This document shows positions 4,885 through 62,520 of a DNA stretch of 64,000 bases, piece after piece (positions within the stretch are counted from its first letter, which is position 1; each line of letters starts with the position of its first letter). A program made the position numbers and the translations under genes. Location of the stretch: IMG/VR virus record IMGVR_UViG_3300021962_000031. One strand, written 5' to 3'. The notes under the pieces are model-generated. The model had not been told where the DNA came from, did not search any database, and saw only the letters and a program-made list of their open reading frames with translations. This DNA is from a virus.

Positions 4885-4901
4885 TCCGGTGGAGGATAGA
4901 T

Positions 4902-5168
4902 ATGAATGCCTACCGGATCGTCACTCGAATCCAGGATCAGGACGACTTCAGCGGCGTCCCGCAGTCCGGTCAAGTCGTTTACTTTGATTCCTCTTCCGGC
5001 AAGTTTGTTCCCGCCGACCTCCTGCCTCTTATCCCCCCTGTGGGCAGGACTCTTGCTGGCTTAACGGACGTTCAGGTGGTGGCCCCATCGGGCAATGACG
5101 TCCTCATGTACCGCTCTGGCGACCAGAAGTGGATGAACGAACACATTCTTGACGGAGGCAACTGGTAA
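4902..5168 (+). CDS. Small fibre adaptor protein ending LDGGNW
   Basis: GGAGG RBS; LAGLTDV..PSGNDVL.Y..KW.N fibre repeat; TAATG coupling to the next gene. Confidence 0.6.
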   Translation: MNAYRIVTRIQDQDDFSGVPQSGQVVYFDSSSGKFVPADLLPLIPPVGRTLAGLTDVQVVAPSGNDVLMYRSGDQKWMNEHILDGGNW

Positions 5169-10815: not shown

Positions 10816-10824
10816 GAGTGAACA

Positions 10825-23255: not shown

Positions 23256-23521
23256 TGGCTGGAATTACTCGTCGGTGCAAAAGGCGTCCGAACAGCGGTG
23301 TACAGGGGTGTCCCGCCCAAGGGCCGGGCACGCCCATTACGGTATACCCAGGTGGAACCTCGACGGGGGTTATCAAAAGAAGCCCAACCAACCCGCCAGC
23401 GCCCCCGCCGAGGACGCCCCCAAAACCCGTGGTCAAATCAAGTACCACGATTGTCATTCCCTTCACGGGACCAGTAGTACCCACCGCCTCTGGTATAACA
23501 GTCACGGTGACCAAGGTTTAA
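23255..23521 (+). CDS. Small Pro/Thr-rich hypothetical protein
   Basis: TGATG coupling at 23255; fills the gap up to the RBS of the next gene. Confidence 0.55.
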   Translation: MAGITRRCKRRPNSGVQGCPAQGPGTPITVYPGGTSTGVIKRSPTNPPAPPPRTPPKPVVKSSTTIVIPFTGPVVPTASGITVTVTKV

Positions 23522-23531
23522 GGAGAGTATT

Positions 23532-24533
23532 ATGTCTGGGACATCGCCCCCAACAACTAGTGGACCCACGACCTCGGGACCAACGACTTCGGGGCCAACG
23601 ACCTCGGGACCAACGACTACCACGACAACCACCACAACTACGACCACGACTACGACAACAACCACCCCCGCCCCGGTTGTTGCCACATTGACTCTTGCTA
23701 CTAATGATCCTCTATATAACGACGAAGCCGTTGTTTTCACTCTGTCTGGAGTTACCGTTTCGCCTGGCGACACCATCTCCATCGCAATTGCCGACAACAC
23801 CATCCAGTCTGCTGTCGACGGCGCTTTTGTCACAGGACAGACTTTCAACAACACGGATGTTTTCAACTGCGTGGGAGCGACACTTTTCCTAGATCAGTAT
23901 GCCACCAATTTCGGACCCAACAGCGGGACCTGGAACGATTTAAGCTACAGCGGCAACGACGCCACCTTTGTCAGCAATCCCACCTATTCCATCAATAATG
24001 ATGGCTATTTTATTTTTGACGGAACTGCGTCTTATGCTTACGGCAACTCCGGCCTGACCAACAACGCCGATTTCAGCGTCAATTTCTGGATGTACTACAT
24101 CAGCAACAATGCGACCGAACAGGGTATTCTTTCGACCTGGGATACCAGCTGGAATGGGTTTGCCATTGCGACCGGCGGGACTGGGGCGAACATCCGCTCG
24201 TGGACGAACAACGGCGGGGGTGGGGGTCTAAACTGGGCAACCACAGCCTCCGTCCGGAACGGCTGGCATATGTTCACCCTGACCTACAAGTTTTCGACCA
24301 AGACCCAGACAGTCTACATCGACGGAGTGCAGAAAGGGACAGAGTCCTACGGATCGGCTATCACCCACTCCACCTTGCAAATAGCGCGGGGCGGGGCGAC
24401 CGGTTCGGCTCAACTCTCCTCCTATCCACTCACTAACTGCTACTTAACAAATATAGCTTTTTATAACTCTGTTATGACAGGAACGCAAATCAGTAATGCA
24501 TTCAATAAAACGAAAAGCAGGTTTGGCCTGTAG
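23532..24533 (+). CDS. Mucin-like Thr-rich N-terminus plus LamG-like lectin domain (paralogue 4)
   Basis: AAGGAG RBS; (PTTSG)4-P-T18 tract; W.DLS.SGN and F.FDG..Y motifs; ends KSRFGL. Confidence 0.75.
   Translation: MSGTSPPTTSGPTTSGPTTSGPTTSGPTTTTTTTTTTTTTTTTTTPAPVVATLTLATNDPLYNDEAVVFTLSGVTVSPGDTISIAIADNTIQSAVDGAFVTGQTFNNTDVFNCVGATLFLDQYATNFGPNSGTWNDLSYSGNDATFVSNPTYSINNDGYFIFDGTASYAYGNSGLTNNADFSVNFWMYYISNNATEQGILSTWDTSWNGFAIATGGTGANIRSWTNNGGGGGLNWATTASVRNGWHMFTLTYKFSTKTQTVYIDGVQKGTESYGSAITHSTLQIARGGATGSAQLSSYPLTNCYLTNIAFYNSVMTGTQISNAFNKTKSRFGL
23550..23666 (+). repeat. Four 15-bp PTTSG repeats followed by 18 Thr codons
   Basis: Read directly from the sequence; all four ACN codons are mixed. 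Confidence 0.9.
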
Positions 24534-38800: not shown

Positions 38801-41800
38801 CTTACAACGGGCAAGACAAGAAAGACTGACTGGTTTTGGCGGCCCAGGCTCTGGAAACCCTCAATTTATAGCCAGCGCAATGGGTGGTGTTTTTGATGAC
38901 ATTCGTCGAACAGAAGAGCGAATTTCTCAAGCAACCAAAGGCGGAAATATCGCTGAACAGAATGCGGCTGCTATCCAATTGTCTTCTCTTAAAACCAAAG
39001 CGGCAGAACTCGGTCAAGCCTTGAAAAATCTTACGGATGTTTCCGAAAGAACATCACAGGCTCAAGAAAAGCTTTCAAAAATACAATCTGACCGAGAAGG
39101 CAGGCAAGCTCTTGGTCTTCGTTACGCTACAGCAAACACAGAGGGCCGAGCGGAAATAGCTTCTTCTTTTAGGTTGTTATCTGCTGCGGCTCAAATGGGT
39201 ACTGCGGCTACTTTTTCAACCAAGCAACAAAATCAAATCTTCAGTCTACTTTCTTCGTTGTCGCCCCAAATGAAATTGCCTGGTTTGGGTGGTATCAATG
39301 TAAAAGATTTGACTTCTCAATTAATGAAAACTACTTTTGGCGGAGCATTTGATCTTGACCCACAAACGGCTGCTCTTGAGCGGGCTTTAGATAATTTCGT
39401 TCAATCAAATTATGATGTCGCAGTCGAGGCATCTCGTCTACAGGTAGAGATGCAACAGAAGCTGCAAGCTGATTTCTTTTCTAGGCTTCAAAACGGACAA
39501 CAAACCTTCATAAATGAACTTTCTAGAGTTATGATGGAAAATCAAAAACTCATGCGAGAAAGTCTTCAAATGCAGGCGCAAAGTCGCCTTGAAGGTTTGG
39601 AAAAACAAGTTGGTCAATCTTCAATGCTTGGAAAAATCGGAGTTTCGACTGACGATCAATTCAAGGCTTTGAGAGATACATTGAATGATCCAAAAAATAA
39701 AAGTATTGATACTATTTTTGAGTCGGCAAAAAACCAAAGAATTGTGCAAGGCAAAACAGAAAAAGCATTAGATAACACAAAAAGTTTTGTGGATGATATA
39801 ATTGCTTTAGCTGGAAATGACTATGCTAGAGGGACAGCAAAAAGCGATGTTTCTGGAATTTTGATGAACAAATTTGGCGATATGGGATTTACTTCTCCTA
39901 TCGATCAAAAAAAATTGATGTCTTTGTTTTCCGAAAATTTAGACGAAAAAGCTGGCTATTTGTCAACCATTGGTGGAAACAAAGAGAACATCGCTGAAGC
40001 ATTTCGTTATGCAATTACCACATTTCAAAGAGAATCTAATGATCGAAACAACACCGACATATTGCAAGCCGGAAAAGATTTGCGTAACCAAGGCACTATT
40101 GATAACAAGATAATAGACAACATTATTCGGACAGCAAAAGAAAACGCAGATAATATTACTGTCAAAACATTGCGTGAATCTGTTTCTGCCGTAGGTAGCA
40201 CGAATAAGAAGTTTTCAGAGTTAAATGGCGCTCTTGACCAGGCTCGTCAACAAGTTCAGGGATTTGCTGAAGTCTTAGCTGTTAGGCCTGAAGGAAGAGC
40301 CAACGGCGGTATGATTCGTTATTTTAATAAAGGTGGTTGGGGTTCTGGCGGTAGTCTCAGCCCTCACTCTTCTGACACCGTAAACGCCAGAATTAATCCT
40401 AATGAATTTGTTGTTTCGGCAGGGCCTGCTCAAAGAAACAAAAAACTTTTGGAGCAGATAAACGCCGGTTATGCAAATGGTGGAGCAATTGAAGAAGCCA
40501 AACAAAATATTGGAAACGCTCAAAAAAATATTGGCGCAAGTACTGAAGATATTATAAATCCCGTTAAAACTATGGAGGCCGCCGAGCAAGCTCGCAAAGT
40601 AGCTCGCGCAAATTCACAAATTCTTTTCCTTCTTCAAATTAAAAACATGAACCCTGATGAGCGGTTCAAATTTGTCAACAAACAAAAAGATTGGATCAAA
40701 TCAATTTCTGGGAAAGAGACAGGCGATCAACTTGGTATCAAAGATGCTCTTGCTCAATTAATGTCAATCGAAGATCAAAAAAATAAATCTTTGAACTTTC
40801 GTGATCTTGAAAATTATCATGTTGGCAAAAGAAAAATGGGAATTGCAAAAGCAATAAAAACTTTTCCGACTAAAATTGCAGTTGATATTCCAGAAATATA
40901 TCAAGCATTAAAAAAGTTTATGGAAGCAGGAAAAGAAGCTGAAATATTTACAAATAATGTCAACGATAAATTCCGAATCGGAATTGGTTCTAGTTTGAGC
41001 GAAGTAATTCAATCAGAACCAGATTTGAAAAGACATTTATTCCTTAATAATGTTGATCGCATGGCGAATACTCTAAACGAAGATGGCACATTAAAACTTT
41101 TGGGTGACATTGATCCTCTTCGCAGAGAATATGAATCTCTTTGGACTGATACAAAAATATATGCTAAAACGGCAAAAGATTGGACATCAAGTGTCATTTT
41201 TGCAAATGACTATAATGAAATTGGAAACTTGCCTACAATTGGCGATTTGCAAGAAAAAGAAAAACGAAACATTGACAAAAAGATTCTTCAAAAGCATTAT
41301 CCTCCTGGAATTTTTGGCAAAATTTATGGCGATGCCCTTCAACGCTTAGCAATTACTGCTCCGAATGAATTTTCTGGAGACATGGATACATGGGCAAAAA
41401 AAACAGAAAAAACCAAAAAACTTGGTCTAGATTTTGATTTTGAAAAGACGATTTCGGCTCTTATTGATAAGGCTCAAAATGATTTAGTAAATCAAAAAGC
41501 AGAAGTTCAAAAGCTTGCTAAAGCTAATGACTTGGTAAAAATAATTCAGCAAGGACGAATTGGTTCATTGCAGACTCCAGAACAAGGCATCGCCAAGATT
41601 TTTGAAGAGCGCAACAATGCTCAGTTTGGCCCCAAACAAGATATGGAGTTGATGAAGCTCCAGCTTATGGCCATGGAAGCAGACGCTTTCAATAAATTAA
41701 ACCCTGGCGTTCAAACAAAACTTTTGGAGATGAAAAGGCGTCGCATCCTTGAAAACAAATTGAGTCCTGCCGAGCAAGCCCAAATGGCTGCTATGGGTCT

Positions 41801-44432
41801 GGATAAACTTATTAATTCCACCGAAGATGTGACTGGAGATGAAATTCGCGAATACGCTGCCAACCGCAACAAAATGACCTTAATACAAAGAGCAGCCCTA
41901 GATGTTTTAATGGGCAAAATTGCCGCTCAATCTCAAGGCAAATTTAACGAAGACCCAGACAGCTTGAGCGCAGTCGAAAAGGCAGCTTATCTCATTTCTG
42001 TAGATGCTGAGGGTAGATCGGCTGCTCTTGATGAATTTAACAGTCGAAAAAATGCGATGACCTTAAATCGAATCGGGATGTGGATAACTTCCAATCCTGG
42101 CGCAATAAACAATATGTTAAAAAAATCTGAAGAGAAGGGTCCTTTTGGTTATGCTAAAGATTCAGCTCTTCTTGAAATTTTGGCAAGTGCTTATGGCGCT
42201 CCGACAACTTTACCAAAAGCTTCTGATGTGTTTAAGGATAGAAGCCTAAAAAACAAACAGCAACTTGACGAAGCAGAAAAAATTAAAAACGAATTTTTGG
42301 GTCAAAAAGAAAATGCTATTGCTATTGCTCAAGCGGCTTTGGGTTCTGGTGTCACAAACGGACTTATTGAAGCCTTTAAATCTGGAAAAGGTCTTCTTGG
42401 ATTTGCTTCTGGTGGTCTAGTTCCTGGGGTTGGCAATACCGATTCTGTTCGCGCTAATTTGCCAGTTGGTAGTTATGTTGTTCGCAAGTCTTCTGTTCAA
42501 AAGCTAGGCGCAGATACTTTAGCTGCCCTTCCCCACATGGCTAGGGGCGGAGTTGTGCCAGCCATGGTTATGCCTGGTGAACATATTTTTACTCCCAGCG
42601 AAGCTTCAAAGATTGGGAAAAACAATCTTGATCATATTAACTCAACGGGGAAATTACCTGGATACGCAGATGGTGGTGATGTTGTCATCAACGGAATCAA
42701 ATACAATTTGGTTCCATCTGGTGCGGCAAAATGGGGTGGAAACCGAAATGCTCAAATGGGATTCCAACCGCAGACCGCCAAAGGAACAACTAATCCTTTA
42801 GCAAACAATAATAATAATGGCAATCTAAATGAACAACAGTTCCTCGCTATGGAAGCGATGAACCAAATGATTGGCGGTAATGGTGGAATCACCGGGGCCA
42901 AAGCTAAATTTTTCTCTCTTCGTGACGAACTAAAAAATCCAAGAAACAGAACCAAAGAAAAAATTGCTGAATTTCGACAGTTGTATGCGACTTTGACCAA
43001 TCCATTGGTTGCACAAATGGATGCGCAGCGTCAAATGCTTGGCGCTCAAGACGCATTCGCTTCTTTCCAGCAAGACCCAAAAGCCTTTATTGCTCGGTCG
43101 AAAGAGCTTCGAGCTTTGGCTATGAACACCAAAGCCTCAATGGAAGAACGCGTAGCAGCCAAAGAACAACTCAATCAAATGAACTATGCTGCTAGGTTCA
43201 TTGATCCTCGGGCACTTAGAGGCGCGGCAGCAGCAAATCAAAAAGATCAACAGATCAGACAGCAACAGCAATTTATTGCTGCCGGAAACGATCCATTGCA
43301 GGGTGGCCTGCTGCGTCTCAATCCCGCTCTCGCCAACAAAAATATGGCGCCTGCGGCAAATCCAGTAGAAGTACACAACGCAAGAGTTAGAGCTAACGAA
43401 CAAAATCAAGCCGAACCAAATCGTAAAGCAGCAGAAGTTAACCATCTCAAAAAGATGCTGGATATAGCTCAAGAAAACTACCTAAAAACTGGCGATCCGC
43501 GGTTTCTTCAAGAGATTAACAAACTCAAGAACCCAGAAAAAGTAAAAGCAGAAGAAGAAGCCGAAGCCAAACGCAAAATGGATGACTATCGCGCCAAAAA
43601 ACAAAGTGAAGAACATGGAAATGAAATTGGTCGTTGGCATGTGCGAGAAGGCATTGAAGACATCAAAGATCCAAATGGCATTAAGCGTGGAGAAGAAAAA
43701 CTAAGAAAGTTTTACGCAGAGAAAGACAAGAAAAGACAAGAGTTTGAGAGTCGGGTTTTTGCCCACGCCCCGACTTACGAAGAAAATATGCCAAAAATGC
43801 AGAAGGAATGGGACGAAAAGAACAAGGGATTTGTTGAAAACCGATTGAAAGAACTTGAAAAAGAAAGCAACGAGCGTTTCAATCGCAATCCAATGCATGC
43901 TGCGATGTATGCTCGACTGGCAGATTCTCCTTATCTTGACAAAAAAGACATTGTCAAAAAAGCGACAGGCGGCATAGTCCCTGGCGTTGGTTCTGGGGAT
44001 ACTGTTCCCGCCCTGCTTGAGCCTGGCGAACTCGTAGTACCGAAGAAGCAGGTTCAAAAGTTTGCCAACGGCGGTGTGGTGGGCGGTCTCCAAGGATTCG
44101 CCAACGGAGGAATGGCGCAAGGCGGTCCTGAGCTTCTGGACGTCGCCGCCAAGTTCAACCAAGCCGCCACCCAGATCAGCCAGGGACTATCGGGCTTCTC
44201 CACCTCGGTTAGTACCTTCAACGGGGCCGTGGCCAACTTCGGCACCTTTGTGGACAAGTTCGACGAGGCGGTGGGCAAGATTCCCGGCCAGATTGAACTG
44301 TCTGGGGCGAACGACATCTCGGTCAACCTGATGGGCCAGGACTCCATCGTCAAGGCGGTCACCGAAGCCATCGGGCCTATGATCGCCCAGGCGATTCGGG
44401 ACAACCAGCCGGTTGAGCAAAGGGCACAGTAA
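32826..44432 (+). CDS. Giant tape measure protein (3868 aa) with an internal zincin-like domain
   Basis: N-terminal TP901-type TMP core (AIEFDREM.., TRESAESIATGLRTIF.R); position after tube and chaperone genes; four GG..PG.G..D.V..GE.V modules; HEMAH at 34860-34874. Confidence 0.9.
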   Translation: MSFDITGQLNLRLASGAIRNIANEINTGLRGTTRGVSVPVRADMNNIRAVKEAISGAGTALDKFAQQSGLAFKRFAAFSSAAVPFIAVASGIRNAVTQAIEFDREMVRLRQVSVESASEVAQVGQEVTRLATAYGVSSKELIKMAVTLKQADFNIYETRDALEALAKSALAPNFDSMAQTGEGAIAVMKQFQIQAADLDKAIGSMNAVAGAFAVEAGDLIEAVRRTGGAFKATGGDLNQLLALFTSVRQTTRESAESIATGLRTIFTRIQRNDTVNALKEFGVNLRFTRQEAERAGDLGLTNQFVGAYEAIRRLSSALTQLPEADPRYSAIVEDLGGYRQISKVIPLIQQWSTTERALMVAEAGRVSLTVNASQATESYANRLTKLQESYLSLGRSLMDSNSFKVAFSGFESLAKGMLMVLEAAKPLLPMLTAMASAKLIQSIAPVAARFYQGVTYSDKGSLLARNQGGPVGFASGGLVPGVGDKDTVPSSIPSGSFVVRKSAVQKFGSENLARLGSKANVMLTPGEYVFTPDQAKKIGAPSLNQINRNGKLPGYALGGLFDYVKSYFGSPSLPDANQTAARPTVRLIDQILKQGKDPNKEAKFQQYASRLQKEAFKSGNFADLAKVIPSLADTKVEYGVSSKPLSKAYGFVDANEQKNKVYITSNLKNAPNPLSTVVHEMAHVADLAAGRKIAGKKTGRNFLSNQEGTETNTIIKKLAPLFEKGLMGMEPDEFKNTGKNKQDYIKYRLQPHEILAKSVQAMSLENPLDAFKDMQGVTKKEQAQLLALVKEVDQTFRKEVVEKMGATQPKADSGPTKKVEEARKKVASVGKQIKDAAKKVKTPDSEPVPVAVAEPAVQPMSREERLEYLKRRKAEMDAKAEADAKRDVRQAMRDEGIAPARGKRKKKEGLPAKPEVIVKEPIREILSNEKTPGGTFPENSQGYLAAHAITERMNQGRAERHKAVLPTGVAASELATVSISKATDKITGTRVAPPGLTREDRKRYEAYSSKVYAELKEARYWGFNSVKEYREFNDYFGRLDGSGPPGKGSIPTGGGGGGGGGGGEPPSPTTPSDVSPGSPPPPPKKRRGYAAFKSEMKYRELIESAMKTGNQIGAYSTEMPQFSGDQSIKFLGELRKMGGYRPQMLQESIEQNLRTNNPGMNEKGIQKVAAMQTTRIMKAAEQVSRAQERLGQVSNIREQANSRAGDIDQYFQLSRSINRLQKRADFDPEAVAEAKRLTATRQEVAKRIADNEGIDFSELGKVSKSGRVSATKSARDLLKGYRSGYESDARGATVEEARQRAILEKNQEKLQGVGISTSMDASGQVKINFRGTDSAYGAGTIPPRANINKNNLGKILNDEVQKIYNAIDPAGRGKNISDIQKKDISENAKNNVMKNYVDNVSLQIQQQYKIKDAESARLIATQKFEHALRSGAEIVVKNNQIFDADALKQGYKGGLRQKFANVFSSTQGALGNAFSSQSGFLGGQVIASYVSNALSNLAGSADNAAANDRGGSYKAARVLSGGLSGLVTGAQIGSAFGPLGAGIGAATGGLFGLVNSFKEAAQEISDAKIGLALKKTTDALSNFAKGTYALTPQNAKTIDTNFNTIDREIAAKSGRNTSYLFGLVSGSQENFQTELTKNMRESMAGQATSMMDALTKLIQDQAVRNVGNADIQDMASIRKDFDLALAQNGGIGSRLFSRVATATEQDPEMFRKTLLDMFQRSKESEVLKRRQQTSETEINRSTATFGGLSSAVEVATQRLTRMTTSLKNVSDFMDGSITPFSGSGLTEALQRPLGSDREDFMGAVRSITKTAGVAGGDVEKTADAVTVAGRLLPSIINAVRSQPVANLATGADISVQIGENLRKGLAARGIDNTSAAMVTNMVSSQLGSEDFSKMLRETGQDMGKLIQKLLGPMAEPLKQSFTEIAKNLDERGRMFAEGLSELANRTRAVGELMDKANMAEIASVRNRIQFGVRRRLISEDAADAGLFNASQNLQRARQERLTGFGGPGSGNPQFIASAMGGVFDDIRRTEERISQATKGGNIAEQNAAAIQLSSLKTKAAELGQALKNLTDVSERTSQAQEKLSKIQSDREGRQALGLRYATANTEGRAEIASSFRLLSAAAQMGTAATFSTKQQNQIFSLLSSLSPQMKLPGLGGINVKDLTSQLMKTTFGGAFDLDPQTAALERALDNFVQSNYDVAVEASRLQVEMQQKLQADFFSRLQNGQQTFINELSRVMMENQKLMRESLQMQAQSRLEGLEKQVGQSSMLGKIGVSTDDQFKALRDTLNDPKNKSIDTIFESAKNQRIVQGKTEKALDNTKSFVDDIIALAGNDYARGTAKSDVSGILMNKFGDMGFTSPIDQKKLMSLFSENLDEKAGYLSTIGGNKENIAEAFRYAITTFQRESNDRNNTDILQAGKDLRNQGTIDNKIIDNIIRTAKENADNITVKTLRESVSAVGSTNKKFSELNGALDQARQQVQGFAEVLAVRPEGRANGGMIRYFNKGGWGSGGSLSPHSSDTVNARINPNEFVVSAGPAQRNKKLLEQINAGYANGGAIEEAKQNIGNAQKNIGASTEDIINPVKTMEAAEQARKVARANSQILFLLQIKNMNPDERFKFVNKQKDWIKSISGKETGDQLGIKDALAQLMSIEDQKNKSLNFRDLENYHVGKRKMGIAKAIKTFPTKIAVDIPEIYQALKKFMEAGKEAEIFTNNVNDKFRIGIGSSLSEVIQSEPDLKRHLFLNNVDRMANTLNEDGTLKLLGDIDPLRREYESLWTDTKIYAKTAKDWTSSVIFANDYNEIGNLPTIGDLQEKEKRNIDKKILQKHYPPGIFGKIYGDALQRLAITAPNEFSGDMDTWAKKTEKTKKLGLDFDFEKTISALIDKAQNDLVNQKAEVQKLAKANDLVKIIQQGRIGSLQTPEQGIAKIFEERNNAQFGPKQDMELMKLQLMAMEADAFNKLNPGVQTKLLEMKRRRILENKLSPAEQAQMAAMGLDKLINSTEDVTGDEIREYAANRNKMTLIQRAALDVLMGKIAAQSQGKFNEDPDSLSAVEKAAYLISVDAEGRSAALDEFNSRKNAMTLNRIGMWITSNPGAINNMLKKSEEKGPFGYAKDSALLEILASAYGAPTTLPKASDVFKDRSLKNKQQLDEAEKIKNEFLGQKENAIAIAQAALGSGVTNGLIEAFKSGKGLLGFASGGLVPGVGNTDSVRANLPVGSYVVRKSSVQKLGADTLAALPHMARGGVVPAMVMPGEHIFTPSEASKIGKNNLDHINSTGKLPGYADGGDVVINGIKYNLVPSGAAKWGGNRNAQMGFQPQTAKGTTNPLANNNNNGNLNEQQFLAMEAMNQMIGGNGGITGAKAKFFSLRDELKNPRNRTKEKIAEFRQLYATLTNPLVAQMDAQRQMLGAQDAFASFQQDPKAFIARSKELRALAMNTKASMEERVAAKEQLNQMNYAARFIDPRALRGAAAANQKDQQIRQQQQFIAAGNDPLQGGLLRLNPALANKNMAPAANPVEVHNARVRANEQNQAEPNRKAAEVNHLKKMLDIAQENYLKTGDPRFLQEINKLKNPEKVKAEEEAEAKRKMDDYRAKKQSEEHGNEIGRWHVREGIEDIKDPNGIKRGEEKLRKFYAEKDKKRQEFESRVFAHAPTYEENMPKMQKEWDEKNKGFVENRLKELEKESNERFNRNPMHAAMYARLADSPYLDKKDIVKKATGGIVPGVGSGDTVPALLEPGELVVPKKQVQKFANGGVVGGLQGFANGGMAQGGPELLDVAAKFNQAATQISQGLSGFSTSVSTFNGAVANFGTFVDKFDEAVGKIPGQIELSGANDISVNLMGQDSIVKAVTEAIGPMIAQAIRDNQPVEQRAQ
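35982..36014 (+). repeat. Perfect (GGT)11 microsatellite encoding Gly11
   Basis: Read directly from the sequence. Confidence 0.95.
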
Positions 44433-49600: not shown

Positions 49601-50131
49601 GTCGGACTGCGTGGCCCGATGGTAGTTGTGGGCTACGGCCAAGACATTTACAACAACGGAAATATTGCTCCTACCGGAGTTGGTTTGGCCTATCGCTCAG
49701 ATCAACACAAGGTTGGACCGACAGATTTGCTGTGGGATGATTTGAGGCAGGTCTGGACAGGAGCCGGAATCACAAGAGTTTATGTTTATGCCGAGGGAAG
49801 TCCGGCCTCTGGCTATGTTGTTATTGGAAATTCTATTACCAGCAAAGCCATCGCCCTTTATCCATCGACGCCTGGATCAATCGGTATTGGCTACACATTA
49901 GCAGCCTACTCGCCGAATGAAAAAGTTTGGTATCAAGCAGGTGGCGGCAGCCAAGTATTTTTGGGCAATTCTTTGGGTTACATATATGGTGGATCAAGTG
50001 GTAGCGCCAATGTCTTCAATAGAGGCGTAAAAAATGTCTACAACTATCTTTCCACCCCCATTTCTTCTGGCGCAAAAATAATTGTGGCTGAGTCTAATGG
50101 TAGTTATGTTGTCATTGCGGCGGATTGCTAA
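46673..50131 (+). CDS. Tail tip/hub protein
   Basis: 1152 aa. N-terminal S..L.LV, F.FGGIL, V.DPRE.L and SL.D.I..VC.DAG.DF motifs fit a hub protein; position fits as well. Confidence 0.55.
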   Translation: MPTESDFKFVAPQITYGSNNRTLLGFYVQQASATVSWGDNGSSLNLTLVKENDDFNYLYNDFPATVGHPIRLKIGGFYFGGILSKVTKKKATNGLTYDIVVVDPREILQATSVIIGQYSGTVPVGVGNIINAYGFWEDPAIGGFGWSGSDNLGMPWTSFFSAVLQICNKPIITPYGGPMRWGLPTPEFPNGVYYSLDLSELPIPDPYYRIEGNGVVSLYDVINKVCQDAGYDFVVELIGYTIKIRVINRKFAPALGTIGAIVNTPGSNATAIEHGIEMAQGHQTAAMLIGAPREGMFAKANFTSFWGYDHLKNPILGHSGTIVLAPKIMGEQPILYRCEMMNLYAFSVEDVIGSAYYFCSTLELQFAMAGIDSWMEFIEKYRPDVFFAMTGFASNRTNQVLLNGLNVGDSVQTNPQAILARALEATYDRSEGRRRFFSWLSGVAQQYLGKEFIVSLGPITTDIGNLWPSFFQSTIDPDQPFDQNLRPNIRYEFDVCRSAYMPIEEAFLYYGLKPISASTFMDDGNRFEPIALYNYVRLNQTNAFIENTQETVFDTYGVYTKVSMGDQIEEMAFPNVVTPYSTSQSIRYILDGPGFAFVGGPLVRATVQNPIFSRATDPSGDHSVISRVLGTPANIYQTNAESSKTKMHPPPVNPSFFILPLKSNRFCYGPFWTYSQIPGRVKIEVDSDLTPASYGSEILMNRIAIARLFDGSSQLALTEHGRVTIPDFPQVSIGQALQVNGPAVTSVEISFGTGGVQTTYAFQNFSPRFGVIPRQTQDRLRKVGQLSSQLRRNLFKLAIESQKTSQGMARAAVGAAGLQMTAGAFDKFHRVQTPHECVAGFASQASQYAVRLDVKSAPLHELLANTEANDVELYANRAITSQDALFRPYRAPTYNGGISVTRNGVDYRSLPDTSLLPKLEIPQNIYNTTTSQNLTPIIYPGASDISIVTYQKANGEPCEINNWNTGAGAGAFEARSVGLRGPMVVVGYGQDIYNNGNIAPTGVGLAYRSDQHKVGPTDLLWDDLRQVWTGAGITRVYVYAEGSPASGYVVIGNSITSKAIALYPSTPGSIGIGYTLAAYSPNEKVWYQAGGGSQVFLGNSLGYIYGGSSGSANVFNRGVKNVYNYLSTPISSGAKIIVAESNGSYVVIAADC

Positions 50132-52038
50132 TGAGTTGCCAAGGTCGATGGCCGTGTTGTTGTAATCGCGCAAGCCAATGTCTTGCCTGCGATTCCGATC
50201 CTACAGGCGGCGAGTATGACTACGCTGTCATCGTTCGCTTCGGGGCGAAAGAATCCAGCTTATACAATTCGCAAGAACAAAAATATCTGCCGGATTTTGA
50301 TTTTTCGTCTCCGGAACGCTTTCTGTCATTGAAGCTCAACGGACAGAATTTACCCATCCCCCATTTGGTAGAACGAAACGATTACAATAACGACTACTAC
50401 TATTATTGGTATTGGAACTACCATTATTACGGGTGGGCGGTCTACTACACAAACCCCAGCGTTTTGGGTCCGCTTGTCAACGCCACACGCTGCCCTTGCT
50501 TGAATGATGTCACAACCATGTATGGTTGGAATTACTGGTGGCTTCCCGGCTGGTGGTATCAAGGCCCAGAGTTTCTCAGCGACCCGTCCACGCAATACAT
50601 ACCTATGAGCAAAGGTATGTTTCAAGCCAACAACAATGACATGGACCTGCGCTTCTCTTCGTTGCCGTTCAACTTAGACGAATGGCCCACCGAGAATCCG
50701 CTGAAGACAGCGGATGTCGATGCCAGCTTTGTGGTGATTCGTTTCAAGAATGGTATACCAGAATGTGTCTCTACCAAAAGTAAATTGACTGCTAGTCTTC
50801 GCTCTCAGGAATACGACTACTCTAGTAATTATAACGGTTACTACTACTGGTGGGGCTGGAACGGATACTGGTGGGGGATATCTGTAGGCGGAGCCTATTT
50901 GCCCGGCTCCAACCAACCCCCTTATACGGCAGGTTACTGCCAATGGCCATTTCCCAATAACGGCTATTACAACTACTGGTATGGCTGGTATAACGGCTAC
51001 TACTCAAATTCCAACCGCAGCCTAGACAAGTATTGGGGTAGTGGTGGTCACACATACTTTGACCTGTGCGCCTACGAACAAGACTCCCTACCTCCGTGCG
51101 GCGGTAATTTGCCAGGAACTCTCAATGTCACGGTTGTGACCAAATGCCTAGGGACACAAAGCGCACAGGTATCGGCGGCCACCCCGCTTTTTTCAGACTA
51201 CGACAACACGCAACCCATTCCGTACACCTACACAAATTGCGGTAACTTTACGGAAATCCAAGCAGATACCTCTACCTATTACATGTTCGCCCACGCTCAG
51301 TACGATCAGCCTTATACCTATCAAGGCGACGATCTTAATAAAAAACTACGCGAGTGCAAGTTTCCTTTGAGTAGCGCAGGTGCTTCTTATTACCTTATCA
51401 ACAAGATCGACAAAGGTAGTGAGCCGATTGATTTTGGAATACCCGAAGGACAACAAGAATACTATCTTGGTTATGCTTATGAATATTTTATTGATGATGG
51501 GAACTATACCGCAGAACCACAGAACCCGGTCATACCTGATCATTACAAAGATGATAAAGGAAATATAATTCCGCGTTCTTCTATTATTCAATCCTGGAAA
51601 ATAGGTGACCCATACTATTATTATTGGTATAATTGGTACTACAACACAGATTATGATCTTTATTATATTTGCGAACAAGGTGGAGTTAATTATAAAAACA
51701 AACACGACAATATTGTTTATCAGGACTGGCCGCTTGATTTGCGAGACGAGCCGATTCGATGTAGTCCGTTTGTGACCGGTCCTGCTCGTTCTAGTGCTTA
51801 TTCATATCACTATGCGGTTTCTACTCCGATAGTTACTCGTTTTGAATTAGCGCCCAGATACGATAATACAAAAACCAGCCGTGATTATTACTACTGGCAT
51901 AAAATCAACGGATCTTATGTTCAACTCAAATATAGACTTTGGGACCTTTATGGCATCAGTCGGGTCTGGTCAACCAACTGTCACTCTTGTGAGCTTGGAT
52001 ATAGAGTTGCCCACCCACCAATCACGGTGACACCATGA
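50131..52038 (+). CDS. Cys- and Tyr/Trp-rich tail-tip-associated protein
   Basis: TAATG coupling; N-terminal C...PCCC...C..C; several Y/W/N/G patches. Confidence 0.65.
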   Translation: MSCQGRWPCCCNRASQCLACDSDPTGGEYDYAVIVRFGAKESSLYNSQEQKYLPDFDFSSPERFLSLKLNGQNLPIPHLVERNDYNNDYYYYWYWNYHYYGWAVYYTNPSVLGPLVNATRCPCLNDVTTMYGWNYWWLPGWWYQGPEFLSDPSTQYIPMSKGMFQANNNDMDLRFSSLPFNLDEWPTENPLKTADVDASFVVIRFKNGIPECVSTKSKLTASLRSQEYDYSSNYNGYYYWWGWNGYWWGISVGGAYLPGSNQPPYTAGYCQWPFPNNGYYNYWYGWYNGYYSNSNRSLDKYWGSGGHTYFDLCAYEQDSLPPCGGNLPGTLNVTVVTKCLGTQSAQVSAATPLFSDYDNTQPIPYTYTNCGNFTEIQADTSTYYMFAHAQYDQPYTYQGDDLNKKLRECKFPLSSAGASYYLINKIDKGSEPIDFGIPEGQQEYYLGYAYEYFIDDGNYTAEPQNPVIPDHYKDDKGNIIPRSSIIQSWKIGDPYYYYWYNWYYNTDYDLYYICEQGGVNYKNKHDNIVYQDWPLDLRDEPIRCSPFVTGPARSSAYSYHYAVSTPIVTRFELAPRYDNTKTSRDYYYWHKINGSYVQLKYRLWDLYGISRVWSTNCHSCELGYRVAHPPITVTP

Positions 52039-52391
52039 AGCCGTGCCCGAACGATCCATCGATCTGCAAGTGTGCGATCTGCAAGCTGTACAGCACCGAT
52101 CCAGTTTATCGGGCACATTGGGATGGGGTGGCTTTGCCAACACCCGCACAGCCAGCACAACCACCACCGCTTCCTGGTCTGTTGCGACAAGGACTGAATC
52201 TGGCTACCGCCATCGTCCAACATGTCGCCGGAGGGTTGCAATCAGCTGATAGCGAAACATATCAAAAAAGAATGGAAATTTGCAAAGCTTGCCCCAAACT
52301 TCGGCCCGACAACCGCTGTTCTGGGTGCGGATGTGTTATGAGCGTAAAGGCCTCGTGGGACGAGCAAAAGTGCCCCGATGGCAAGTGGTGA
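52035..52391 (+). CDS. Small Cys-rich protein (resembles DUF6171-type R..IC..CP..C..CGC..K..CP..KW)
   Basis: Ten Cys residues in 118 aa; ATGA overlap with the upstream gene. Confidence 0.65.
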   Translation: MKPCPNDPSICKCAICKLYSTDPVYRAHWDGVALPTPAQPAQPPPLPGLLRQGLNLATAIVQHVAGGLQSADSETYQKRMEICKACPKLRPDNRCSGCGCVMSVKASWDEQKCPDGKW

Positions 52392-52420: not shown

Positions 52421-53092
52421 ATGCCGGCGTCAATTTCATTTTATGCGGGTCAGTTCGTAGAGGGGGGAACCTTCTCGACTTTCCAGATTGCCGACCTAGC
52501 CGGTTCCGGTTTGGGCTTTTACGGTGGCGGATTTGGAGAATCCGTAGCCGTTGGCCAAGCCCAAGACAAGACCTTCGTGACCAATGCCACGGGTGTCAAC
52601 CAGGGCGTCGAAGCTTGGAATGTCAAATACGCCAACGCAGGAAGCGGGTTGGTGGGCCGCGGCACCTCTGCCATCCCCCTCCGTGCCATCCCCAACTGGC
52701 AATCCACCGTCAATGTCCGATTCACGAACGACACTTCCGTAAAGACCCAGAATGTCAAAGCCTACATCTTTGATCGGGTTCTTCCAACCAATCCAGCCTC
52801 CGGTGTAACTACTTACCTAGCAGAGATCGTACACCCCGTCACTGTTCAGGACTCGGGAAGTCCTACTGGGTCGGGTTCGACAGCTTGGGAAGTGTTTACG
52901 ACTGCCGGCCAAACTACACCAGCTCAGCGAGACCCGGTCACCTTGACGGCCTCGCCAGGAACCTCTGGTCTGCGTCCCTCGGGCGCAAACACGATGGATA
53001 TCCGCCACGACTGGTATTTGGCATTGTCAGCATCCCCGGACGGGATCGGGAGTAAGCAGTTCGGACTCTGGGTCCAACTGGAATATCTGTGA
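52421..53092 (+). CDS. Putative abundant virion structural protein
   Basis: Has its own upstream motif, an AAGGAGG RBS and a terminator; Gly/Ser/Thr beta-rich. Confidence 0.55.
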   Translation: MPASISFYAGQFVEGGTFSTFQIADLAGSGLGFYGGGFGESVAVGQAQDKTFVTNATGVNQGVEAWNVKYANAGSGLVGRGTSAIPLRAIPNWQSTVNVRFTNDTSVKTQNVKAYIFDRVLPTNPASGVTTYLAEIVHPVTVQDSGSPTGSGSTAWEVFTTAGQTTPAQRDPVTLTASPGTSGLRPSGANTMDIRHDWYLALSASPDGIGSKQFGLWVQLEYL

Positions 53093-53149: not shown

Positions 53150-53872
53150 CTAGGCGAACTCATAGCCACGGTTGGGAATGAAGACTGCCCTTTTCCTCGT
53201 CGCCGTAGGACGGGGCTGGGTGAGGTAAGTGGTTGCCGCCATGGCTAGATATTGGTTTTCGCCACCGGGCGTTTGGAGTGAACGGACAGACATCCAGCCA
53301 TTATCCTGGCTTTCATAGATAACCATGCGTCCCTGGCGCGGTTCAATTTCACGAACCACATTGAAGCCGACATCGTCCCACAACAGATGCTGGCCTTTCC
53401 AACCCACATTCCACTCCGGCGTCAAAAATAAAAGCACATTGACCCGTCGCTCCAAGTTTAGGATGGGATGCAGTTCGTAGCCCATATGGGGGGCAAGGAA
53501 GCCGCCATTGTCATAGCGGTAAATGCCCATCCCGTGCAGGCCTGGGTCAGCAATCAAATTGGGAATACCTATGGCATTGCTAACGATATTGATAAACGAT
53601 GGAGACTGCATCGCCTCCAAAAGGTTCCTGGTAAACGGCGACAGCGAGGGCAGTTCGCGGGTGGTGCGCTTCCTCTCAAAATCATTATTGTAGACCGTCC
53701 AGTTTGGCCAATTGGATGGAGGCAGCGTGTAAAAGGCCTCGTTTAGAACTTGTGGGTCAAAAGCGTTTTCGATGATTAGGTGGGGATATGGTCCGGTTGC
53801 AACATTGCTGACGATGCTGTTGCCACCGAAGCCTGGCACCGGTTCGCCAGCGATCACACTTATTGCTGCCAT
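53150..53872 (-). CDS. 2OG-Fe(II) oxygenase-fold protein with degenerate metal ligands
   Basis: Start MAAISV with AAGGAG. PYPH..I.N, DP.LHG.G, GG.L..H, RR.N.L.FL..W...W.G..LW and P..GR.VI motifs are present, but HxD reads HMG. Confidence 0.75.
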   Translation of the reverse strand: MAAISVIAGEPVPGFGGNSIVSNVATGPYPHLIIENAFDPQVLNEAFYTLPPSNWPNWTVYNNDFERKRTTRELPSLSPFTRNLLEAMQSPSFINIVSNAIGIPNLIADPGLHGMGIYRYDNGGFLAPHMGYELHPILNLERRVNVLLFLTPEWNVGWKGQHLLWDDVGFNVVREIEPRQGRMVIYESQDNGWMSVRSLQTPGGENQYLAMAATTYLTQPRPTATRKRAVFIPNRGYEFA

Positions 53873-53956: not shown

Positions 53957-54994
53957 ATGCCTACGCCCTTGCTTACTATCGGAATGGCGACCTTTGACGA
54001 CTTCGACGGCGTCTACTTCACCCTCCAATCTCTTAAGGCTTACCACGACCTGACCGATGTTGAGCTATTGGTCGTTGACAACAAACCCGAAGGCTGCACT
54101 CACACCAAGACTATCTGCGAGTGGACGAAGACACGCTACCTGCACAGGGGCCACGCTACCGGCACCTCCCTCCCCCGCCAACTTGTCTTTGAAGAAGCAC
54201 AAGGGGAATGGGTCATGTGCATGGACAGCCATGTCTTGCTCACGCAAGGGGTTGTGTCCAAGGTTAAGGAGTTCATTCGTTCTGGCAAAGCCGAACGCAA
54301 GAACCTTTACCAGGGACCGCTTCTTTACGATGACCATATCAACATGGCGACGCACTTCGACCCAGTCTGGCGCGACTCCATGTATGGCACCTGGGCGACT
54401 GATGAGCGAGTCAAGCTTGGGGAACCGTTCGACATCCCCATGCAAGGCCTCGGCCAATTCATGATGTGTAAGGAAGAATGGCCAGGCTTCAATACCCTGT
54501 TCAGAGGCTTCGGTGGTGAAGAGGGGTATATTCACTCTAAGGTGCGCAAATTCGGTGGCAGGGCGATGTGTGTCCCTTGGATGACCTGGCTGCACCGGTT
54601 CGGTCGGCCCAAGGGTGTTCCCTATCGCCTCGTTCTTGAAGATCGCGTGTTCAACTACATCCTAGGTCGCCGCGAGATCGGCCTGCCTTATCAAGATGTG
54701 ATTGAACACTTCACGGGCAGGATGCCCGAAAATAATCTCAAGGCGACAGTCGCCGAGGCCGAAGCACTAGATTTTAACGAGGGCGTTTTCCCTGAGCGTT
54801 TCCGCAGTCTGCAAAAAATCGTTCGGACTCAACCGTGCGTTTATCGCACGGAATTACCCATCGACCGGGCTGACTGCAACTGCCCCTTCAAATTCGTTTA
54901 TGGCTGCGAGAAGCACGAGAAGTGCCGACCGTTCACCGACAACGGAGACGGTGTTCGCTGCTGCCAAAAATGCGAAGACTACGAGGAGGTCTGA
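53957..54994 (+). CDS. GT-A glycosyltransferase with ppGalNAc-T-like motifs and a Cys-rich C-terminus
   Basis: LLVVDN, DSH (54224-54232), FGGEE (54509-54523), H.F...PY motifs; GGAGG RBS. Confidence 0.8.
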   Translation: MPTPLLTIGMATFDDFDGVYFTLQSLKAYHDLTDVELLVVDNKPEGCTHTKTICEWTKTRYLHRGHATGTSLPRQLVFEEAQGEWVMCMDSHVLLTQGVVSKVKEFIRSGKAERKNLYQGPLLYDDHINMATHFDPVWRDSMYGTWATDERVKLGEPFDIPMQGLGQFMMCKEEWPGFNTLFRGFGGEEGYIHSKVRKFGGRAMCVPWMTWLHRFGRPKGVPYRLVLEDRVFNYILGRREIGLPYQDVIEHFTGRMPENNLKATVAEAEALDFNEGVFPERFRSLQKIVRTQPCVYRTELPIDRADCNCPFKFVYGCEKHEKCRPFTDNGDGVRCCQKCEDYEEV

Positions 54995-60297: not shown

Positions 60298-61091
60298 GTC
60301 AGCATGGCCCTCATGAACGCCTGGGCAGAATCGACCGGCGTGTACTGAATAAACAAATCAACCAACTCACCAAAGACTTCTTGTCGTTCAAATTCGCTGC
60401 TAAGAACGAGGTCTTCGACAAGCTTTATGTAAGTTTCAGGAAGGTTGCGAGAAGTCGGAAGGGAATTGTCTCCGGCAACTACAGGGATAGTCCCCACTCG
60501 CAATGTCTCGTAAATTTTACGAACATCACTCGCCTCATCGGCAGACATGGCATGTACATAGGTCGAGGCCAAGGCACGCGCTCTTTCCTCGGTTGTCAGA
60601 GAGCCAGCGTAGTATGGAACAGGCCACGGCTTGTCGGCGTAGATACGGGCCACAAAACTCTCATTCTCAAACAGAGGGATAAAAAAAGCATCGTAGCCCG
60701 GACGGTATTGATCCAGAAAAATCACATCGGTCGCCAAATCGTTGCAATAAAGCGACTTGCCATCCAAACACATGAAAGGCCAACGGATGACAGGCAGCCC
60801 CTGCTCGTTGTCGTCGGTGGTGAACAGAAATGCCCCTGGCGGCAGCTTGTCCAAGAAAGTGAAACTATCCTGCCACAAGGCCAGTCGGCACTTGCCCTGA
60901 TTGCGAAGCAGGGCGGGTGTGATGGCGGATGTCGGGCCGATAAAAAGGTCGGGTTTCTGTCTGGCAAAGGCCTCGTGGGTGGGCATCTTTGACGGAACCC
61001 ACAGGGCCGCATCATGTCCAAGCTGAACAAAACCGCGTGCCAAGGCGCCTGTCCCCACACCATTGTCATCATTCTCAATGAGAATATTCAT
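60291..61091 (-). CDS. GT-B (CgeB-like) glycosyltransferase homologue
   Basis: L.RGF..LGH, KPDLFI, D..F, KIYE.L..G and C-terminal T......F motifs. Confidence 0.5.
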   Translation of the reverse strand: MNILIENDDNGVGTGALARGFVQLGHDAALWVPSKMPTHEAFARQKPDLFIGPTSAITPALLRNQGKCRLALWQDSFTFLDKLPPGAFLFTTDDNEQGLPVIRWPFMCLDGKSLYCNDLATDVIFLDQYRPGYDAFFIPLFENESFVARIYADKPWPVPYYAGSLTTEERARALASTYVHAMSADEASDVRKIYETLRVGTIPVVAGDNSLPTSRNLPETYIKLVEDLVLSSEFERQEVFGELVDLFIQYTPVDSAQAFMRAMLTC

Positions 61092-61861
61092 GCTGTCACG
61101 CCCTTGCGCCTTAGCTTGGTAACCAAACTTTTAGCTCGTTCAATATCCTGAGTGCTGTCAATTTCTACGAGATTGGTCTTGTCTGGGTAAGCCGGCACAA
61201 TGATGCCATGCGCGTCAATAATTCCGTTAAGAACCTCATAGGCAAACCAACGGGCACTCTGATTGCGCGAAGCAACTCGCCGATACAAGTCAAGTTCCTT
61301 GTCTGCCAGTTGCACGGCCTGACCCCATTTGGGCCAGACCCCATAGCTGAAATGGCAGACTCGTTCTTGGTCGATGTTGCATCCGACTTCGCCAGAACGA
61401 TGATTCTGATTCTCGTCAATAATTGCGGCAGAACCTTCTTCTGGTAGGCATTCAAGAAAATCGGGTCCAAAAACCAAATCTCCACACATCAAAATCACCT
61501 TCTTGGCGTTTGCGTGATTTACGCCAACAAGGAGAGAGCGGGCCACATTGGTATCTTCGTGGGATGAGTTTTCTACCCAGCCAACATCCTTTGGCAAAAC
61601 CTTTATCACCCGATCCTTCTGGTAGCCAACAACCACGATGATTTCAGCTTTTGGCAATGCCTTGCGGGCGAACACAATCTGGCGACTGAGAACGGTCTCG
61701 CCGCCGCCGATTTCGATAAGGGCTTTTGGGCCTCGGGCCTTCATGCGGCGCCCAGCCCCAGCCGCGCTAATTACGACAGCAAGGTCTGGCAATGGCGATC
61801 CCTCATGATTTTTACCTGTTTGGCCATGAACTCGGATGGTGTGCGCCTGCTGAGCTGCCAT
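61088..61861 (-). CDS. Sugar/choline-phosphate nucleotidyltransferase (LicC/MobA-like)
   Basis: AAG.G.RM...PK.L, VVGY, GD.VF and EID...D motifs all intact. Confidence 0.85.
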   Translation of the reverse strand: MAAQQAHTIRVHGQTGKNHEGSPLPDLAVVISAAGAGRRMKARGPKALIEIGGGETVLSRQIVFARKALPKAEIIVVVGYQKDRVIKVLPKDVGWVENSSHEDTNVARSLLVGVNHANAKKVILMCGDLVFGPDFLECLPEEGSAAIIDENQNHRSGEVGCNIDQERVCHFSYGVWPKWGQAVQLADKELDLYRRVASRNQSARWFAYEVLNGIIDAHGIIVPAYPDKTNLVEIDSTQDIERAKSLVTKLRRKGVTA

Positions 61862-62520
61862 GTTCCTTCGTTGACGCTCATCATTGGATCGGGCAGATGT
61901 AGGATGACCCGGTCAGCAGCGATTCGCATCCACAATTCATAATCTTCGGCGGGAGGCAGGGCTTCATCGTACAAGCCGACATTTTCCAGAGCAGATTTGC
62001 GAATCACGCAAGCGGAATGAACCATGTTGTCAAAAAAGAGTTCTCGTTTTACGAACGCCTTTTTGCAATGGCGGAACGAGACGCCATCACGCACCTGGAA
62101 GTAATCGGTATAAACCGCACCGGCCATCTCTCCATACTTTTCCAGTAGGTCTACGCAGGCTTTCAGTCTGCCTGGAAGGAAACGGTCGTCCGCATCCAAA
62201 ATGGCAAAATATTTTGTCTTATCCCAACTGACTTTGATGGCCACATTTCGTGCAGCCGCTGGCCCTTGGGATTGGTGGGCAGAGAAAAGATTAACTTGGA
62301 CATCCTTGATCGTGCCGCGGACAAAAGGTATTTGCAAAATTTCATCGTGGGCGGCGTTTTCCATTGATCCCAAAAGAGTGCGCACGGAGTCATCGGTTGA
62401 GCCATCATCAACAACAACGACCAGTCCTGGCTTTTCTGCTGCGGCTGATTCAACCGCGCCCACCAGAAAATGGCCGTAGTTGTGATTAGCAATCACAACC
62501 GCAACATCCTCAAGCGACAT
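61771..62520 (-). CDS. Family 2 glycosyltransferase
   Basis: VVDDGSTD, G.AAARN, LDADD and EDYELW.R motifs intact. Confidence 0.9.
   Translation of the reverse strand: MSLEDVAVVIANHNYGHFLVGAVESAAAEKPGLVVVVDDGSTDDSVRTLLGSMENAAHDEILQIPFVRGTIKDVQVNLFSAHQSQGPAAARNVAIKVSWDKTKYFAILDADDRFLPGRLKACVDLLEKYGEMAGAVYTDYFQVRDGVSFRHCKKAFVKRELFFDNMVHSACVIRKSALENVGLYDEALPPAEDYELWMRIAADRVILHLPDPMMSVNEGTWQLSRRTPSEFMAKQVKIMRDRHCQTLLS

Follow-up and report, generated by a model that had tools for sequence, protein, structure and literature searches.

A GT27-like glycosyltransferase of an uncultured freshwater phage and the pairing of its relatives with poly-threonine genes

The IMG/VR record IMGVR_UViG_3300021962_000031 represents a complete freshwater virus genome of 149,106 bp with direct terminal repeats. 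A stretch of 64,000 nucleotides lying within this genome (hereafter the window, to which coordinates refer unless otherwise indicated) was analyzed with regard to one gene, P0001, located at positions 53,957 to 54,994 and encoding a predicted glycosyltransferase (GT). The predicted structure of P0001 matches the GT27 polypeptide N-acetylgalactosaminyltransferases (GalNAc-transferases) best, and its relatives in phages and bacteria are repeatedly encoded directly downstream of genes for proteins carrying long threonine tracts. These results suggest, with a probability of roughly 0.6 in our estimation, that the phage enzyme acts like a polypeptide GalNAc-transferase on the phage's own poly-Thr proteins. 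By analogy with its relatives, the phage probably coats its threonine-rich fibre proteins with sugar. A preliminary description of the window, made from the sequence alone, had proposed a protein O-glycosyltransferase acting on Thr-rich virion tracts, and this reading is supported by both the GT27 fold and the poly-Thr pairing.

Fold and Relation to GT27

An AlphaFold2 model of P0001 was calculated from 30 homologues and reached a mean predicted local distance difference test (pLDDT) value of 83.7, with residues 1–284 being modelled confidently. Searching the PDB with this model by means of Foldseek returned GT27 polypeptide GalNAc-transferases in all of the first 50 rows (best E-value 3.5e-14, TMq 0.6). 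VIA-align, which is independent of Foldseek, ranked GalNAc-T1 first (Z 21.8 over 265 residues, root mean square deviation 3.6), ahead of T. gondii GalNAc-T3 (Z 20.7), which was followed by the chondroitin polymerase K4CP (18.1), TarS (16.9), B4GALNT1 (16.5), and TarP (15.6). The glycocin S/O-glycosyltransferase SunS, to which P0001 showed no sequence match, was placed far below the GT27 enzymes (Z 11.4). The structural comparison between GT27 and polysaccharide or DNA glycosyltransferases, which had been suggested in the preliminary description, was thus decided in favor of GT27 by both programs. As deduced from the model, the enzyme is closer to GT27 than to any other solved GT-A family, the match extending over the whole catalytic domain (mouse GalNAc-T1, 8v9q; human GalNAc-T2, 2ffu/4d0t; GalNAc-T7, 6iwq; T. 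gondii GalNAc-T3, 8uhv).

At the sequence level, the only Pfam assignment for P0001 was Glycos_transf_2 (PF00535; residues 8–110, 33.2 bits compared to a gathering cut-off of 23.3), a broad model for the half of the domain that binds the nucleotide in many GT-A families, and no matching family was found in NCBIfam and PHROGs. A profile of the P0001 family recovered GalNAc-T2 from the PDB at an E-value of 0.03 over profile positions 34–215; TarP and TarS scored better, but spanned just the first 110 positions. The profile of the C-terminal half yielded GalNAc-T7 as its single PDB match (E-value 0.07), in an alignment that matches PMQGLGLF to PAMAGGLF, FGGEEGY to WGGENFE, and the distal His to that of SRVGH, while a single-sequence phmmer search of the PDB with P0001 gave no match. 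Since identity to GT27 amounts to 12–17%, the E-values are non-significant, and P0001 contains neither a ricin-type lectin domain (Pfam) nor a type II membrane anchor, it is not assignable to GT27 itself.

Conserved Motifs and the Cys-Rich Tail

The motifs of P0001 follow the order R74...E80-AQGEWVMCMD90-S-H92-V, P161-MQGLGQF168, G184-FGGEEGY191, and G200-G...P207...H213-R-F...P222-Y223. All four motifs named in the preliminary description are therefore present in the order given there, although some of the spacings were misjudged by one or two residues; the separate Cys-rich domain described behind them is real as well. The gene and the conserved segments are located as follows:

53957..54994, plus strand: GT gene P0001, 345 amino acids from ATG (open reading frame and translation)
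54224..54232, plus strand: D90-S-H92, DxH metal/nucleotide-sugar motif at the usual DxD position; D90 and H92 invariant in alignments of 30 and 64 homologues
54437..54460, plus strand: P161-MQGLGQF168; M162, Q163, G164, G166, and F168 invariant; aligns with PAMAGGLF of GalNAc-T7
54506..54529, plus strand: G184-FGGEEGY191, counterpart of WGGEN; G184, F185, G186, G187, E189, G190, and Y191 invariant; aligns with WGGENFE of GalNAc-T7
54587..54610, plus strand: W211-L-H213-RFGRP218, with H213 as candidate third metal ligand; W211, H213, R214, F215, R217, and P218 invariant
54821..54991, plus strand: Cys-rich C-terminal module, residues ~289–345 (57 residues), conserved in ten tail-bearing homologues

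Because the motif columns are invariant or nearly so across both alignments, the motifs represent more than chance resemblance. GT27 enzymes bind their metal through a DxH motif plus a distal His. P0001 shares with them DxH instead of DxD, the distal His, and the order of the PxMxGGLF-like and (W/F)GGE motifs. In the HMMER alignments used to map the residues onto GT27, H213 corresponds to the His of SRVGH in GalNAc-T7; D90-S-H92 is aligned with DSD of TarP by the family profile. D90-x-H92 plus H213 fit the GT27-type ligands, and metal binding by these residues is predicted. Compared with the Gal/GalNAc-T motif, P0001 features the replacements W to F and N to E, and Pfam Glyco_transf_7C was not detected in the protein.

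The C-terminal module follows the pattern C-x12/13-C-x1/2-C-x7-C-x2-H-x2-C-x12-C-x2-C, seven Cys and one His being fixed in the ten homologues, and is probably zinc-binding. It occupies the position of the lectin domain in GT27 enzymes; in contrast to these, a small Cys-rich module, or nothing, takes the place of a ricin-type lectin domain. Model confidence for the tail was low (pLDDT <50 in the whole-protein model, and ~60 when the tail was modelled alone with ten homologues).

Pairing with Poly-Threonine Genes in Relatives

To evaluate the gene neighborhoods, the longest non-overlapping open reading frames (ORFs) were called in 80 loci from phages and 63 from bacteria, a crude procedure by which some neighbors in high-GC bacterial loci may have been mis-framed. 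A Thr-rich tract was defined by at least 16 of 20 residues being T, S, or P and at least 7 of 10 being T. A poly-Thr ORF was present in 29 of the 80 phage loci, nearly always directly upstream of the GT gene on the same strand and separated from it by 11–56 nucleotides (L032, L033, L041/42, L048-50/53/57/80, L052/56, L054, L063, L065, L069/71, and L076), while in a group of DUF7164 fusions the poly-Thr gene lies 1.8 kb upstream. The same direct upstream arrangement was found in at least 15 of the 63 bacterial loci (L086, L089, L091, L093, L094, L098, L103, L109, L110, L112, L122, L132, L140, L157, and L158), which belong to the Chloroflexota, Planctomycetota, Actinomycetota, Gemmatimonadota, Acidobacteriota, and Proteobacteria.

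To account for relatedness, loci were collapsed at 70% identity, resulting in 42 lineages. A poly-Thr gene was located directly upstream in at least 9 of these 42 lineages and directly downstream in none of 39, compared to 21 of 1,965 (1.07%) among the other ORFs of the loci (binomial p = 6e-10 for the upstream excess over background; Fisher p = 0.002 for upstream versus downstream). In a FastTree phylogeny of 144 GT domains, the presence of a poly-Thr neighbor requires at least 20 changes and is scattered over phage and bacterial clades. The reverse approach, in which viral loci were chosen only for an (ACN)10 tract, revealed the GT in 1 of the 118 loci listed, where it was encoded directly downstream of the tract. 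Co-occurrence of homologues with poly-Thr virion genes across related phages had been named beforehand as a check of the proposed function; immediate upstream adjacency in many independent lineages is a tighter association than had been asked for.

The poly-Thr partners fall into at least nine unrelated protein clusters (Calx-beta, InlB B-repeat, Stig1-like, and others without a Pfam family) that have the tract alone in common. A directional and repeatedly re-created pairing with proteins sharing nothing but poly-Thr is what an enzyme–acceptor pair would look like. Many of the bacterial partners begin, as read from their sequences, with a twin-arginine-type leader (FDxLxKxL...SRRxxLK), behind which small Cys-rich modules and then a poly-Thr tail are found. 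In L089, L091, L092, L093, L094, L103, L109, and L110, this leader conforms to (R/K)FDxLxKxL...(S/T)RRxx(L/V)(K/R)G, again preceding small Cys-rich modules. These partners look like a family of miniproteins exported by way of twin-arginine translocation (Tat). One poly-Thr neighbor carries an N-terminal PqqD domain. Within one phage clade, the partners (L048/L049 ends 3422/9978, L069 end 6796, L076 end 1385, and L052 end 9981) share the C-terminal word C-x(2-5)-C-N-K-L-G-Y/F, of which C-K-T-L-K-F is a variant.

Family Size, Distribution, and Architectures

A word-indexed search identified 2,514 proteins at E-values ≤0.001, and an exhaustive search of representatives retrieved 1,713 clusters, 1,051 of these below 1e-30. 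The family is encoded in 426 IMG/VR contigs and in 392 bacterial species out of ~185,000 species genomes. From phages to six bacterial phyla, its core of ~260 residues is 45–58% identical throughout, which is unusually conserved for an accessory GT. No P0001 homologue was found by tblastn in 50,697 GenBank phage records, including mycobacteriophages, even at an E-value of 0.01; judging from these searches, the family is known within phages only from uncultured ones.

Different architectures occur, namely stand-alone enzymes (~280 amino acids), enzymes with the Cys-rich tail (the clade of the window), fusions to DUF7164 (~597 amino acids), fusions to MauE/DoxX, and fusions to a further GT. PqqD, the peptide-binding element of pathways for peptides that are made ribosomally and then modified post-translationally (RiPPs), is fused to the enzyme in 7 of 64 multidomain homologues, and HprK-like, redoxin, and ATP-grasp fusions were observed as well. 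A stand-alone PqqD gene adjoins the GT gene in 15 bacterial loci; other neighbors in bacteria encode HprK-like and NTP_transf_5 proteins, further GT2 enzymes, an epimerase, and an AMP-binding enzyme. A literature search returned no paper on a GT27-like family in phages, or on one tied to poly-Thr proteins, DUF7164, or PqqD. This large GT27-like family is unnamed, and the libraries searched yielded no functional description of it.

Poly-Thr Proteins and Sugar Genes of the Phage

In total, three poly-Thr/TSP-rich proteins are encoded in the phage genome, and (ACN)10 tracts were detected in all five contigs tested from the clade of the window, whereas the reversed-pattern control gave none. The candidate acceptor within the window is encoded among genes matching tail-fibre and virion-structural PHROGs:

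23532..24533, plus strand: candidate acceptor of 333 amino acids with N-terminal (PTTSG)n and T18, followed by Laminin_G_3 (translation; Pfam PF13385)

A poly-Thr tract had been placed at 23255-23666 before; it exists in this ORF, but spans ~23550-23666 and does not start at 23255. Outside the window, a mucin-like protein of 1,345 amino acids is encoded on the minus strand (genome positions 92973-97010; L277:6974-11011), in which poly-Thr stalks of 10–30 residues alternate with small disulfide modules (VAGxYC...GPY...AC). Neither a Pfam nor a PHROG family was found for it.

Two further genes confirm the GT/nucleotidyltransferase cluster that had been noted, on the minus strand between 61088 and 62520:

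61088..61861, minus strand: MobA-like NTP transferase (Pfam PF12804)
61771..62520, minus strand: GT2 glycosyltransferase (Pfam PF00535/PF10111)

Also outside the window, a beta-1,4-galactosyltransferase-like enzyme of 244 amino acids (Glyco_transf_7N/7C) is encoded on the minus strand (genome positions 89788-90522; L277:3789-4523), featuring a Thr/Ser/Pro-rich C-terminal tail; it is the third of the poly-Thr/TSP-rich proteins. Among animal enzymes, the Gal/GalNAc-T motif is common to two families, GT27 and GT7, and, with this gene, the phage possesses a relative in fold or sequence of each. The GT2 enzyme with its nucleotidyltransferase, the GT7-like enzyme, and the GT2-DUF7164 proteins of relatives are possible candidates for extending the glycan, and the first two genes could supply sugars.

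Genomic Setting of P0001

P0001 is the final gene of a plus-strand virion/tail block comprising tail-fibre, tape-measure, and distal-tail genes, and strong hairpin terminators of a convergent minus-strand block are located 3' of it at 55.4–55.6 kb. A GTG at 53942 also lies in the open frame; the homologues begin at the equivalent of the ATG with M-x-x-P-L-L-T-I-G-M. No signal peptide and no membrane segment were recognized in the P0001 sequence, in which strand 1 starts at residue 6. Upstream of the gene, two neighbors are relevant for its interpretation:

52421..53092, plus strand: conserved neighbor of 223 amino acids (cluster c13, present in 13 loci; alignment)
53150..53869, minus strand: 2-oxoglutarate (2OG)-Fe(II) oxygenase, P4H-type (Pfam PF13640), divergent from the GT gene

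The 223-amino-acid protein is conserved upstream of the GT in this phage and in its closest relatives (L001–L009), which represent the clade of the window, and is encoded downstream of the GT in the sister clade. It had no Pfam or PHROG match and contains no poly-Thr tract, just a modest Ser/Thr/Pro/Gly-rich stretch. According to tblastn, the oxygenase adjoins the GT only in L004 (87% identity) among the 157 other loci (L001–L158); due to this restriction, it is an inserted gene and not a partner of the GT. Its HxD position appears to read H-M-G.

Further 5', a Cys-rich DUF6171/phrog_13558 protein of 118 amino acids (52035-52391, plus strand) is encoded just ahead of the 223-amino-acid neighbor and has homologues in nine related loci. 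It is preceded by a tail-module protein of 637 amino acids (50125-52038, plus strand) rich in aromatic runs (YYYYWYWNYHYYGW, YYYWWGWNGYWWG, and similar), for which no Pfam or PHROG match and a homologue in one related locus only were found. The composition of the window is strongly heterogeneous, G+C being ~0.60 over positions 1-12000 compared to 0.38–0.44 over positions 36000-44000, inside a tape-measure-like gene encoding 3,868 amino acids.

Alternative Explanations

Several observations weigh against an action of P0001 on poly-Thr proteins. Approximately two-thirds of the loci are without a nearby poly-Thr gene, and the phage itself and its closest relatives (L001–L009; 66–82% identity) have none within 10 kb of the GT. 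For this reason, the targets in this phage are assigned by analogy with relatives and by co-occurrence in the genome, not by adjacency. Sequence similarity to GT27 is marginal (E-values between 0.03 and 0.08, at the low identity mentioned above), and the likeness in fold is general among GT-A enzymes, with K4CP, TarS, and B4GALNT1 reaching Z values of 16–18. Moreover, in a clade of ~20 phage loci (e.g., L059:3727-14230), the GT is encoded inside a replication module in the order DnaB, primase, deoxynucleoside monophosphate (dNMP) kinase, helix-turn-helix protein, PD-(D/E)XK nuclease, GT, a 332-amino-acid protein, DNA polymerase III alpha subunit, and exonuclease, and the two complete genomes of this clade contain no (ACN)10 tract. 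The 332-amino-acid protein is conserved in 18 loci.

The replication-module clade speaks for the main rival explanation, according to which P0001 glycosylates phage DNA at a hypermodified base (e.g., a 5-hydroxymethyl-pyrimidine) and thereby protects it against restriction. The phage encodes a dNMP kinase, a 2OG-Fe(II) oxygenase gene adjoins the GT, and GT-A enzymes are common among phage DNA modifiers (bioRxiv 10.1101/2023.12.21.572611). Like P0001, the latter are phage-encoded, soluble, and abundant in IMG/VR. However, the enzymes glycosylating 5-hydroxymethylcytosine are characterized by R...DDD...EDY/F motifs, by best matches to TarP and the base-J glucosyltransferase (JGT), and by coupling to a 5mYOX or ThyS homologue (bioRxiv 10.1101/2023.12.21.572611), whereas P0001 has DSH where DDD is expected and matches GT27 best, TarP reaching just Z 15.6, and a ThyA-type family was not detected in the phage genome. 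A search of the genome for Tet_JBP was empty, but this blank is uninformative because the control matched no genome either. The adjacent oxygenase is of the P4H type and is found beside the GT in 1 of 157 other loci. In L063 and L065, which belong to the same replication clade, the GT gene directly follows poly-Thr fibre genes, and the phage studied here possesses the same replication module, yet encodes its GT at the tail end, indicating that the gene moves about. In hundreds of bacterial chromosomes, finally, the gene adjoins Tat-signal poly-Thr proteins and PqqD, an arrangement that would be senseless for DNA modification. Taken together, we consider a role in DNA glycosylation highly improbable.

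Alternatively, P0001 could be a common GT2-type enzyme whose acceptor is a glycan, a lipid-linked sugar, a teichoic-acid-like polymer, or a small molecule, for example in modifying the host surface or at a late stage of a glycan pathway, the poly-Thr genes being just frequent neighbors because both are located at the variable end of tail modules. This would agree with the sole recognition of Glycos_transf_2 by Pfam, with matches of the N-terminal half to TarP, TarS, and PglI-type enzymes at E-values of 1e-5 to 1e-4, and with the many polysaccharide GT-A enzymes found at Z 15–18. The further GT2, epimerase, and AMP-binding enzyme genes beside the bacterial relatives and the GT2/nucleotidyltransferase cluster of the phage likewise fit an ordinary glycan role. 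This explanation nevertheless appears unlikely, given that the pairing is directional (9 of 42 lineages upstream versus 0 of 39 downstream) and also occurs in bacterial chromosomes, which lack tail modules, that the partners are alike in nothing but the tract, that PqqD-type peptide-binding domains are fused or adjacent to GT relatives, that the second half of the catalytic domain is GT27-specific, and that GT27 ranks ~3–4 Z units above the best polysaccharide GT with more residues covered. Somewhat less probable still is a protein glycosyltransferase whose acceptor in this phage is not poly-Thr, i.e., the 223-amino-acid neighbor or a residue hydroxylated by the adjacent oxygenase (compare the hydroxyproline of Skp1). 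This possibility draws on the constant proximity of the 223-amino-acid protein in the window and sister clades (13 loci), on the Cys-rich tail of the window clade, which the poly-Thr-adjacent clades lack, on the absence of a poly-Thr gene within 10 kb, and on the divergently adjacent oxygenase gene. On the other hand, all five window-clade contigs tested have poly-Thr tracts elsewhere, the catalytic domain shares 45–57% identity with those of the poly-Thr-adjacent enzymes, none of the motif residues being altered, and the Ser/Thr/Pro/Gly-rich stretch of the neighbor is just modest. The oxygenase-primed, Skp1-like hydroxyproline route was rejected, since the oxygenase occurs beside the GT only here and in L004.

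Proposed Mechanism and Implications

According to the favored interpretation, in which P0001 glycosylates poly-Thr proteins of the phage, a soluble, cytoplasmic, metal-dependent GT-A enzyme would bind a nucleotide sugar and a divalent metal via D90-x-H92 plus H213 and would transfer the sugar to Thr (or Ser) hydroxyls within extended Thr-rich protein stretches. In the infected cell, this action would affect the 333-amino-acid poly-Thr/LamG protein and the 1,345-amino-acid mucin-like protein before or during assembly, and may result in stiff, protease-resistant, sugar-coated linkers on virion appendages, as in mucins. In bacteria, poly-Thr proteins would be glycosylated in the cytoplasm and subsequently exported, often by Tat, a pathway that accepts folded cargo. 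The acceptors of the P0001 family, i.e., presumed Thr-rich, mucin-like protein tracts, would thus resemble those of GT27. In contrast to the Golgi-lumenal GT27 enzymes, however, P0001 is of prokaryotic/viral origin, lacks a signal anchor, and would reside in the cytoplasm.

Known systems share individual features with this proposal. The serine-rich-repeat adhesins of Gram-positive bacteria (GtfA/GtfB, accessory Sec) are long Ser/Thr-rich proteins that receive their glycans in the cytoplasm prior to export, with the genes of enzyme and substrate being linked, as are GT and poly-Thr genes among the relatives of P0001; GtfA/B are GT-B enzymes, though, whereas the family described here combines a GT-A fold with putative poly-Thr acceptors and, in bacteria, with export signals of Tat-type appearance. 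For mycobacteriophages, O-glycosylation of the virion was described by Freeman et al. 2023 (as cited in PMC12619734), phage GTs modifying the phage's own structural proteins; there, capsid and tail-tube subunits carry the glycans at their C-termini, whereas the P0001 family would modify long poly-Thr linkers in fibre-like proteins. Guidance by the RiPP recognition element (RRE; PqqD) is exemplified by linear polyphosphorylated peptides of Bacillota, in which a set of PqqD, HprK-like, and NTP_transf_5 proteins guides enzymes to the leader peptide (PMC13381572). Bacterial relatives of P0001 are fused to or encoded beside PqqD, HprK-like, and NTP_transf_5 genes; in contrast to the RRE systems, the phage enzyme has no PqqD partner, and the candidate acceptors include both large and small proteins.

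O-glycosylation of the mucin type, with GT27 enzymes as initiators, is considered a eukaryotic process. For the family as a whole, we tentatively propose, at somewhat less than even odds, that the large prokaryotic and phage GT27-like group is the initiator of a bacterial and viral counterpart to this process and the prokaryotic sister group of animal GT27. It would act on 'phage mucins', i.e., fibre proteins with dense glycans on their poly-Thr stalks, and on Tat-exported, Cys-rich poly-Thr miniproteins of soil and freshwater bacteria, sometimes guided by PqqD.

Hundreds of bacterial species and of uncultured phages encode enzymes with a GT27-like fold and its metal motifs, genetically tied to poly-Thr proteins, and the gene pairs provide ready-made candidate combinations of enzyme and substrate. 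If the proposed function is true, it would explain the purpose of the frequent poly-Thr linkers in the fibres of aquatic phages, would add to virion glycosylation in phages a second case unrelated to the first, and would predict bacterial proteins of a class that is glycosylated in the cytoplasm and exported via Tat. A small soluble enzyme with which mucin-like glycopeptides could be made would also become available.

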